Shown piece after piece: positions 11,059 through 12,487 of a stretch of DNA of 64,000 bases. Every line of letters starts with the position of its first letter. The first letter of the stretch is position 1. The DNA is taken from positions 1 through 64,000 of IMG/VR virus record IMGVR_UViG_3300036790_000366. One strand, written 5' to 3'. Under the pieces are notes generated by a model. It worked only from the letters and a program-made list of their open reading frames with translations, made no database searches and was not told the DNA's origin. The translations under genes and the position numbers were made by a program. This stretch comes from a virus.

Positions 11059-11382
11059 ATCGTGCCGGAGCTTCGCGAGGTCTGGGCGGACCGCTCCGCT
11101 CCCTTCCACGAGGAGGCGGCCTCATGGTGGGAAGTTTTTGGGTGGGGTGGGCGCAGTACTTCTGTGGCGTTGAAGATACTCCGTGGAGAGGGACTCCGAG
11201 CGCCCACCCCTATGCAGTTGTCGCTTTGCCGTGGTGGTAAGTGCTGTGTTCTACAGCATCTTTCCTCCAACCCTTCGGGAGCAGGGGCATCGGTAAAACA
11301 GGTAAGACGAGCAGTTTTTGCAGGACATGCTCAGGTCCCGGTAGAGGGTCGCAACAACTAAGTTGCCAGCGACCATACCACG

Positions 11383-11457
11383 TAGCCATGACGGGATTTG
11401 AACCCGCGATCTCCTACTTGAAAGGAAGGCGAGCTTTCCGAACAGCTCCACATGGCT
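11383..11457 (-). tRNA. tRNA-Glu(TTC)
   Basis: AGCCATG/CATGGCT acceptor, GAGC/GCTC D stem, CT-TTC-AA loop, GGTTCAAATCC T arm; CCA not encoded. Confidence 0.9.
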
Positions 11458-11555
11458 TAGAGGGTGGTACAGAATCTAGTAGGCGCTAGATGCCCATCTG
11501 CACCACCCCACCCTTGGCAGGGTCACAACCCTAATCACCCACGAGAACGAGGGCG

Positions 11556-11629
11556 CAGCCGGTACGGGATTCGAACCCGTAGTCTTCGCCTTGAGAGAGC
11601 GATGAGATTTCCATTTACTCCAACCAGCC
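11556..11629 (-). tRNA. tRNA-Glu(CTC)
   Basis: GGCTGGT/ACCGGCT acceptor, TCGCT-CT-CTC-AA-GGCGA, GGTTCGAATCC. Confidence 0.9.
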
Positions 11630-11745
11630 TTGCAGGCAGCGCAGTACTCGCCACAACGAGTCGTTACACCGCGCTGCCCTCTTGCGAATGAAGCAACCCA
11701 TACCAGCCCACTGGGATGGTGGTGCCCGGCCGTGGAGGCCAAGCG

Positions 11746-11817
11746 CGCCAAGAGAGGGAGTCGAACTCTCATATCCGGTTTCGTAAACCGGTGCTCTTTC
11801 CGTTGAGCTACCTCGGC
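11746..11817 (-). tRNA. tRNA-Arg(ACG)
   Basis: GCCGAGG/TCTTGGC acceptor, TAGCTCAACGGAAAGAGC D arm, CCGGT-TT-ACG-AA-ACCGG, TTCGACT loop. Confidence 0.9.
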
Positions 11818-12009
11818 ATGGACGACGGCCCGGTCTGTGTAACCCATTAGACAGGCGAGCCGCCGCCCTTTCCCAAACACCCGACCACGTACACCGTGGA
11901 AGGGCCGTGCGCGGAGAAGGCGATCAATGCGGGAAACATCCTAAGCCCGGTCTCGTCTTAATAGAGAACCTGTACCTTCTCCGCTGCTGTGCGTCCCTTG
12001 CGGGACTAG

Positions 12010-12156
12010 GAGCCCCGGACGGATTCGAACCGCCATCTTCTCTGGGTGCTCCGTGGACGATCGACTTGTGCAAAGCAGCGCACTTCAGAAAGGTTGAAAC
12101 TAAAGTTCGCCTACCGTCCACGGCAGAGGTGTTCTTCCTCTTGAACTACTGGGGCC
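12010..12156 (-). ncRNA. tRNA-like RNA with ~75-nt stem-loop replacing the anticodon loop
   Basis: GGCCCC..G/C.GGGGCT acceptor, TA-GTTC-AAGAGGAA-GAAC D arm, CTCTG/CAGAG stem, GGCGG-TTCGAAT-CCGTC T arm; insert closed by 11-bp CCGTGGACGGT/ATCGTCCACGG. Confidence 0.8.
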
Positions 12157-12487
12157 ATGGACACCGGCCGGTCTCACGTATGTTGCAGCTACGCCACCCG
12201 GGGGAGACAGGGTGACCTGCCCCTCTACAAAGCAGGGAGGTACAACCGGTGCCACTACCGCGGGGAGGATCGGTGTTTCCCCGCGGAAGACAAATAATCA
12301 TCGCTGTGAAGTTTTCAAGTATCGAGGCACAAGACCGGCGCGGGGTCCGACCGTCATACATGGACGAGGGTAGGCGCCTAGGTATGAATTTTGGGTGGTG
12401 CTGCGGTGCTTTCCGGCCGCGCCGGTCTGTGCTGGTCTCAAAGCTAGTGGGAGTCTTGAGTTGTGTCAAATGATGCAGGTGGGACGG

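Follow-up and report, generated by a model that had tools for sequence, protein, structure and literature searches.

The block at positions 10994-12487 of the viral DNA analysed here is most probably a polycistronic tRNA operon that is closed by an intrinsic terminator and in which the spacers between the tRNAs are modular and disposable. The window, a stretch of 64,000 nt, comes from an IMG/VR record of an uncultivated virus (76 kb, 62.6% G+C, estimated to be 62% complete). For the spacer-rich part of the block, the original prediction had put forward two options: a single large ornate RNA with embedded tRNAs, or several small RNAs released by tRNA punctuation. As judged from the sequences at hand, the anatomy of the block and its variation in natural populations would fit the release of separate pieces.

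Layout of the block and folding of its spacers

The block has all of its functional signals on the minus strand. Read 5' to 3' on this strand, the order is fibre gene, leader, tRNA-shaped RNA, spacer 2, tRNA-Arg, spacer 3, tRNA-Glu(CTC), spacer 4, tRNA-Glu(TTC), spacer 5 and terminator (Table 1). A tRNA operon was taken to consist of at least two canonical tRNAs that share a strand and are not separated by protein genes, and the block contains three such tRNAs; these (Arg-ACG, Glu-CTC and Glu-TTC, at 56-58 bits) were the only Rfam matches within it at gathering thresholds. The open reading frames of the block have GC3 values of 0.48-0.65, far below the 0.83-0.87 of the adjoining genes, and the block is therefore considered to be non-coding. 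The GC3 values, the fold z-scores and the terminator hairpin together bear out the earlier description of a non-coding, densely structured and terminator-closed block. The embedded tRNAs of that description were confirmed in three cases using ARAGORN and Rfam; the fourth is a tRNA-like RNA and not a canonical tRNA.

Table 1. Features of the block and of the gene that precedes it. Positions are those of the window; z is the fold (MFE) z-score, which for the leader and the spacers refers to the minus strand compared with dinucleotide shuffles.
Feature	Position	Strand	Evidence
Tail-fibre-like (minor tail) gene, 822 aa	12488-14956	-	GC3 0.85; homologues
Leader, 331 nt	12157-12487	-	Stems; z = -2.0; no coding signal
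tRNA-shaped RNA, 148 nt	12009-12156	-	ARAGORN with introns allowed; z = -2.2
Spacer 2, 191 nt	11818-12008	-	Stems; z = -3.6
tRNA-Arg (anticodon ACG)	11745-11817	-	ARAGORN; Rfam RF00005, 58.3 bits
Spacer 3, 115 nt	11630-11744	-	Extended hairpin near 11635-11642/11671-11678; z = -2.4
tRNA-Glu (anticodon CTC)	11555-11629	-	ARAGORN; Rfam, 56 bits
Spacer 4, 97 nt	11458-11554	-	12-bp hairpin 11462-11473/11497-11508; z = -2.4
tRNA-Glu (anticodon TTC)	11382-11457	-	ARAGORN; Rfam, 57.6 bits
Spacer 5, 323 nt	11059-11381	-	z = -3.75; first 79 nt form two hairpins
Intrinsic terminator	10994-11058	-	12-bp G+C-rich stem; z = -5.8

The 5' edge of the block is set by the stop codon of the fibre gene (TAG at 12490-12488). 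Homologues of the fibre protein occur in 44 protein clusters, its best named match is a 'minor tail protein' of Streptomyces phage Frankenweenie (38% identity), and 64 contigs encode a 99%-identical protein. At the other edge, the terminator stem (11047-11058/11001-11012, 12 bp) encloses an inner hairpin and is followed by TATTTTTG on the minus strand; 39 nt separate the terminator (11058-10994) from the ATG of the next gene at 10955. A promoter scan of 10500-13000, in which actinobacterial and phage promoters are poorly covered, returned no sigma-70-like promoter. Since no promoter of this type was seen in the block, its transcription would most likely read through from the tail-fibre gene and stop at the terminator, with the tRNA operon joined to the 3' end of the late tail-gene unit of the phage. 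The transcripts of tRNA operons are processed by RNase P and 3' trimming enzymes, which release the tRNAs. The host versions of these enzymes would presumably cut the tRNAs from the transcript of the block.

All five stems that had been listed in the original prediction are present. Four are perfect (11/11, 8/8, 10/10 and 9/9 bp) and the fifth, at about 12327-12343/12416-12432, has 16 bp and one bulged base. Also present in the leader are a hairpin of 9-12 bp (12255-12266/12278-12289) and, ending 2 nt upstream of the tRNA-like RNA, a long compound hairpin. The 10-bp stem 11911-11920/11975-11984 belongs to spacer 2, in which a 13-bp hairpin also extends to 2 nt before tRNA-Arg, and the 11-bp stem of spacer 5 (11144-11154/11200-11210) is located in a middle segment of 157 nt. 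For comparison with the z-scores of the leader and spacers, coding controls from the same strand (n = 44, 200-nt windows) gave a mean z of -0.50 ± 1.12, with values of -2.0 or below in five of the 44. The MFE z-score of the whole block is -5.9 on the minus strand versus -3.1 on the plus strand.

Under the operon reading, the spacer hairpins most likely serve as punctuation, with each tRNA folding independently. They may define or protect the processing ends, and they may give the late mRNA upstream a more stable 3' end. The spacer pieces, once freed, would be by-products rather than components of one large RNA.

Comparison of the block with itself revealed internal duplications. tRNA-Glu(CTC) and its trailer of about 36 nt, which forms the start of spacer 4, match tRNA-Glu(TTC) and its trailer; the two trailers are paralogous yet folded differently. 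The 3' strand (GACCGGGCCGTCGTCCAT) of the 13-bp hairpin in spacer 2 is a paralogue of the sequence that precedes the tRNA-like RNA. The motif GACCGG(G)CCGNNGTCCAT is found in only two places, at the tRNA-shaped RNA and at tRNA-Arg, and paralogous hairpins terminate exactly 2 nt upstream of both RNAs. The spacers probably arose via tandem duplications in which tRNA units were copied along with their flanks, as non-coding, locally folded and modular segments, and their turnover, by deletion and replacement, appears to be fast.

A natural variant and its bearing on one large RNA

Variant contigs of 18-76 kb were present at high depth in four soil runs from two studies and are about 97% identical across 9500-14000. 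The variant lacks the 255 nt at 11463-11717, and with them tRNA-Glu(CTC), most of spacer 3 (11630-11717) and all but a few nucleotides of spacer 4 (11463-11554 missing); the deletion joint connects 11462 to 11718 and has a microhomology of 6 nt. In the middle of spacer 5, the 157 nt at 11146-11302, where both the 11-bp stem and the GAAGGGTTGGAG segment are located, are swapped for 143 other bases, and this replacement may be a diverged but structurally equivalent segment. No differences were found in 11303-11462, which spans tRNA-Glu(TTC) and the next 79 nt with the two hairpins of spacer 5; the flanks differ by about 2.7%, compared with none in these 160 nt around tRNA-Glu(TTC). The tRNA-shaped RNA is kept, as are the leader, with small indels at 12183, 12188, 12189 and 12226, and spacer 2, with indels at 11934, 11937 and 11945 that fall within the hairpin interior. 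As the variant is without tRNA-Glu(CTC), this tRNA is dispensable. Spacer 3, spacer 4 and the middle of spacer 5 thus proved to be unconserved, and spacers that lack conservation and covariation are what the original prediction had itself named as counting against a large structured RNA.

A further difference lies just downstream of the tRNA block, where the variant has a hypervariable segment. At least 40 substitutions (the first 40 of 115) and several indels fall in 10036-10742, with none in 9500-10035; this substitution-dense segment falls in the 259-aa ORF at 9922-10701.

The variant is abundant and therefore viable, so that a third of the block must be dispensable or interchangeable, which a single RNA with an architecture extending over the block would not allow. 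The idea that the block as a whole forms one large ornate RNA, of the GOLLD or ROOL kind and with embedded tRNAs, draws on the minus-strand z-score of the whole block and on the setting of GOLLD itself, the genes of which lie inside mycobacterial, phage-derived tRNA clusters and can hold a pseudo-tRNA (PMC6582537); the background that had been given on GOLLD near or with tRNAs is thus sound. The block resembles GOLLD (RF01998) in being a large structured non-coding region beside tRNA genes, in a setting that is actinobacterial, phage-derived and high in G+C, and with a possible pseudo-tRNA. It differs in that it is not matched by the GOLLD covariance model, is not conserved as a unit, tolerates large deletions and is without long-range architecture.

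The Rfam check that had been proposed (GOLLD, ROOL, OLE and others) was performed using cmscan with all 4227 Rfam families, at gathering thresholds for the window and at E<=10 with lax filters for 10700-12800. Only tRNAs and chance matches were obtained; GOLLD, ROOL, OLE, tmRNA, RNase P, Y RNA and riboswitch were all absent from 10700-12800, the large families being unmatched even at E<=10. The global MFE fold of the block has no credible closing helix, and its long-range helices are of 4-6 bp or break tRNA cloverleaves. The build of the block is modular, from duplicated tRNA units, and no moderately diverged homologue of it was found among 2.9 million viral contigs by several routes. The cmscan results, the variant with its 255-nt deletion and 157-nt replacement, the duplicated units and the global fold all rule against a giant GOLLD-like RNA, to which we assign next to no probability.

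Another reading gives functions to the individual pieces. The spacers retained in the variant (the leader hairpins, spacer 2 and the first 79 nt of spacer 5) and the tRNA-like RNA would then be discrete, stable small RNAs released by tRNA processing. We regard this as a minor but real possibility. The variant has retained all of these parts, the last of them unchanged, but it has also lost or exchanged most of two spacers and the middle of a third. The spacer folds are stabler on the transcribed strand than on the other strand and than the coding controls, but the equally stable spacers of relatives come and go freely. The ends of the paralogous hairpins 2 nt before the tRNA-like RNA and tRNA-Arg would be in keeping with defined RNA species, whereas the paralogous trailers of the Glu tRNAs differ in fold. 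A match to an Rfam family is absent, and homologues for covariation were not found.

In T4, the small RNAs RNAC and RNAD map in the tRNA region. These late-infection RNAs of unknown function (PMC9697503) provide a precedent for small RNAs of this kind and, as non-tRNA small RNAs made late with phage tRNAs, the best one for stable spacer-derived RNAs, which the block may yield; similarity to them in sequence or structure would not be expected. Under the operon reading, too, the retained structured parts or the unchanged 160 nt may suggest that individual spacer pieces are functional in themselves.

The tRNA-shaped RNA and the early ribosome-binding motif

The tRNA-shaped RNA is the most interesting piece of the block. 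Its acceptor stem, D arm and T arm are present, and an arm of about 95 nt replaces the anticodon loop: the anticodon stem (CTCTG/CAGAG) extends into a 9-bp helix and a branched insert of about 75 nt. It was detected by ARAGORN only when introns were allowed, and weak matches to its two halves (13.3 and 11.2 bits) were obtained with R1, a phage-tRNA covariance model. Since its 18-nt leader and 5' half share 75% identity over 48 nt with their tRNA-Arg counterpart, the tRNA-shaped RNA is, on this similarity, a remodelled copy of the tRNA-Arg unit.

Several other origins were considered. The tRNA-His label assigned by ARAGORN was dropped, and paralogy with the tRNA-Arg unit was preferred. An attP or host-tRNA origin of the 3' half was rejected, exact 24-mer matches being found only in Micrarchaeota MAG tRNAs. 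No tmRNA was reported by ARAGORN at default settings, and a relaxed threshold gave only implausible permuted models. An exact search of viral contigs with patterns from the tRNA-like RNA matched nothing.

With a long helix attached to its tRNA-like body, the tRNA-shaped RNA resembles YrlA and the bacterial and phage Y RNAs (RF02553). The RNA ends of YrlA are situated in the long helix; in the tRNA-shaped RNA, unlike in YrlA, the long helix is distal. A Y-RNA reading was rejected, as no RF02553 match was obtained in the block and only 10-11-bit matches were seen, at 57.3 kb. A Ro60/TROVE gene (PF05731) was not matched in the 76-kb record, which represents an estimated 62% of the genome.

The early ribosome-binding site (RBS) motif GAARGGTTG is present in seven copies in the window versus 0.83 expected, and five of these precede early genes. 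A hairpin loop within 12075-12110 (minus strand) of the tRNA-shaped RNA reads TTTCAACCTTT, which is antisense to this motif, and could pair with all five of the early-gene GAARGGTTG sites in predicted duplexes of -20 to -27 kcal/mol. Spacer 5 also has the motif in full, as GAAGGGTTG (11251-11276, minus strand), followed by 8 nt and then by ATG CTG TAG. With the usual distance between RBS and ATG, this arrangement resembles what is left of a gene start, or possibly a two-codon mini-ORF.

The original prediction had pointed to a segment of spacer 5, GAAGGGTTGGAG at 11265-11276, as a possible long-range internal pairing partner of the loop of the tRNA-like RNA. The complementarity is genuine, and the segment is identified here as a copy of the early ribosome-binding motif followed by ATG-CTG-TAG. 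It is not conserved: it lies within the 157 nt that are replaced in the variant, and the replacement removes the proposed internal partner.

A regulatory role can be modelled on these pairings. The parts kept in the variant (the leader hairpins, the tRNA-shaped RNA and spacer 2) would form a regulatory RNA module in which the tRNA-shaped RNA is excised late by tRNA enzymes; its exposed TTTCAACCTTT loop would then pair with the GAARGGTTG ribosome-binding sites of early genes and silence them, and the GAAGGGTTG copy in spacer 5 would be a strain-specific decoy. We consider this model to be improbable.

Relatives, codon use and significance

Homologues of the fibre protein were searched for with the protein alone and as a 17-sequence alignment, which identified 18 or more viral loci; a homologous block is present in none of them. 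Two closer fibre homologues (79-85% amino-acid identity) were found in metagenome contigs, and in both protein genes lie directly downstream. For the adjoining proteins of 259 aa and 949 aa, viral contigs yielded no relatives, and an 85%-identical terminase is encoded on a 23-kb fragment that stops short of the block. When 50,697 phage records were searched with the block by blastn, the only match was to tRNA-Glu(CTC), at 82%, in two Streptomyces phages. There were no RNA runs among the sequencing runs listed with this sequence.

In two distantly related phage lineages, G002 and G003, a homologous fibre gene is followed by same-strand arrays of 36-38 tRNAs over about 9 kb, in which Arg-ACG, Glu-CTC and Glu-TTC occur in the relative order of the window. 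The spacers of 80-500 nt in these arrays (n = 35) have a mean z of -2.0. Between G002 and G003, spacer lengths at the same junction are 0 versus 417, 10 versus 243 and 3 versus 446 nt. The arrays of relatives also include acceptor-plus-T-arm elements that are not called by tRNA finders. As the spacers of relatives are equally folded and length-variable and are accompanied by such look-alikes, long, folded and unstable spacers with odd tRNA look-alikes are a general trait of this phage group, of which the window is a miniature example.

The large arrays also allow the spacers to be read as decayed tRNA genes of a once larger array, the multibranch folds being eroded cloverleaves. The shared post-fibre position and tRNA order are as would be expected, and a further relative (L020) has a tRNA-Lys between its two Glu tRNAs, at the position of the 97-nt spacer 4 of the window; the tRNA-like RNA, moreover, is itself a remodelled tRNA paralogue. 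A tRNA covariance model, for which 34 tRNAs were taken from this phage and a relative, was run unfiltered over the block. The three tRNAs scored 64-70 bits, and elsewhere only the halves of the tRNA-shaped RNA scored above 5 bits; the spacers gave 5 bits or less (E>=1) with the filters off, and their interpretation as dead tRNAs was rejected on this search. The window spacers resemble no tRNA or spacer of the relatives: sequence similarity to the relatives' tRNAs was not found, and no window spacer was matched in an all-against-all blastn comparison with the relatives' spacers. Orthology of the window tRNAs to the isoacceptors of the relatives could not be demonstrated. Decay of a larger array is thus a very improbable source of the spacers, and a tRNA operon with modular, disposable spacers is the preferred reading.

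The idea that the spacers belong to a repeated mobile element family was likewise rejected, with no match in the all-against-all comparison. Two of the 36-38-tRNA arrays contain a gap of about 1.2 kb, poor in ORFs, directly after tRNA-Arg(ACG) (L027 7602-8872, minus strand; L028 5256-6488, plus strand). Three patches of the gap are 80-89% identical between the phages, and it holds several acceptor-plus-T-arm tRNA look-alikes that are called by neither ARAGORN nor Rfam; the gap has no Rfam family match, and a conserved 20-mer from it was found only in three IMG/VR contigs. This gap, which is absent from the window, is a candidate for an undescribed structured RNA region. A weak tRNA of 31.5 bits with a 3' end of CCA is also present at L028 6837-6908, where the sister phage has a tRNA-Tyr; it was missed by ARAGORN at default settings.

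Codon use was calculated for the GC3-rich ORFs of the whole window. GAA accounts for 34% of the Glu codons, compared with 8-9% for the other A-ending two-fold codons. AAA makes up 9% of the Lys codons and CAA 8% of the Gln codons, and the bias is specific to Glu, the amino acid with two phage tRNAs. Most plausibly, the tRNAs supply codons that are heavily used by the phage, GAA above all. The high use of GAA fits the strict retention of tRNA-Glu(UUC), with tRNA-Glu(CUC) being optional.

The block shares several properties with phage tRNA clusters such as the actinophage and mycobacteriophage arrays (PMC5966550) and the T4 region. Same-strand tRNAs lie in an ORF-free stretch that would be read as a unit, the tRNAs fit the codon use of the phage and their content turns over rapidly between related phages. 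It differs in having only three decoding tRNAs, with spacers of 97-331 nt that are unusually long for this number of tRNAs, in its place directly after a tail-fibre gene, in having its own terminator and in having one tRNA-shaped member that does not decode.

The block is a fairly ordinary feature of a soil phage, and a false lead has been cleared: a high density of hairpins between phage tRNAs is not in itself a sign of a giant RNA. Hairpin-rich spacers of variable length are general in the tRNA arrays of this high-G+C soil phage group, which raises the question of the role of the hairpins in the processing of tRNA operons in actinobacterial hosts. The strain pair that differs by one tRNA-Glu(CUC) cassette provides a ready test of the fitness value of a phage tRNA and its spacers.
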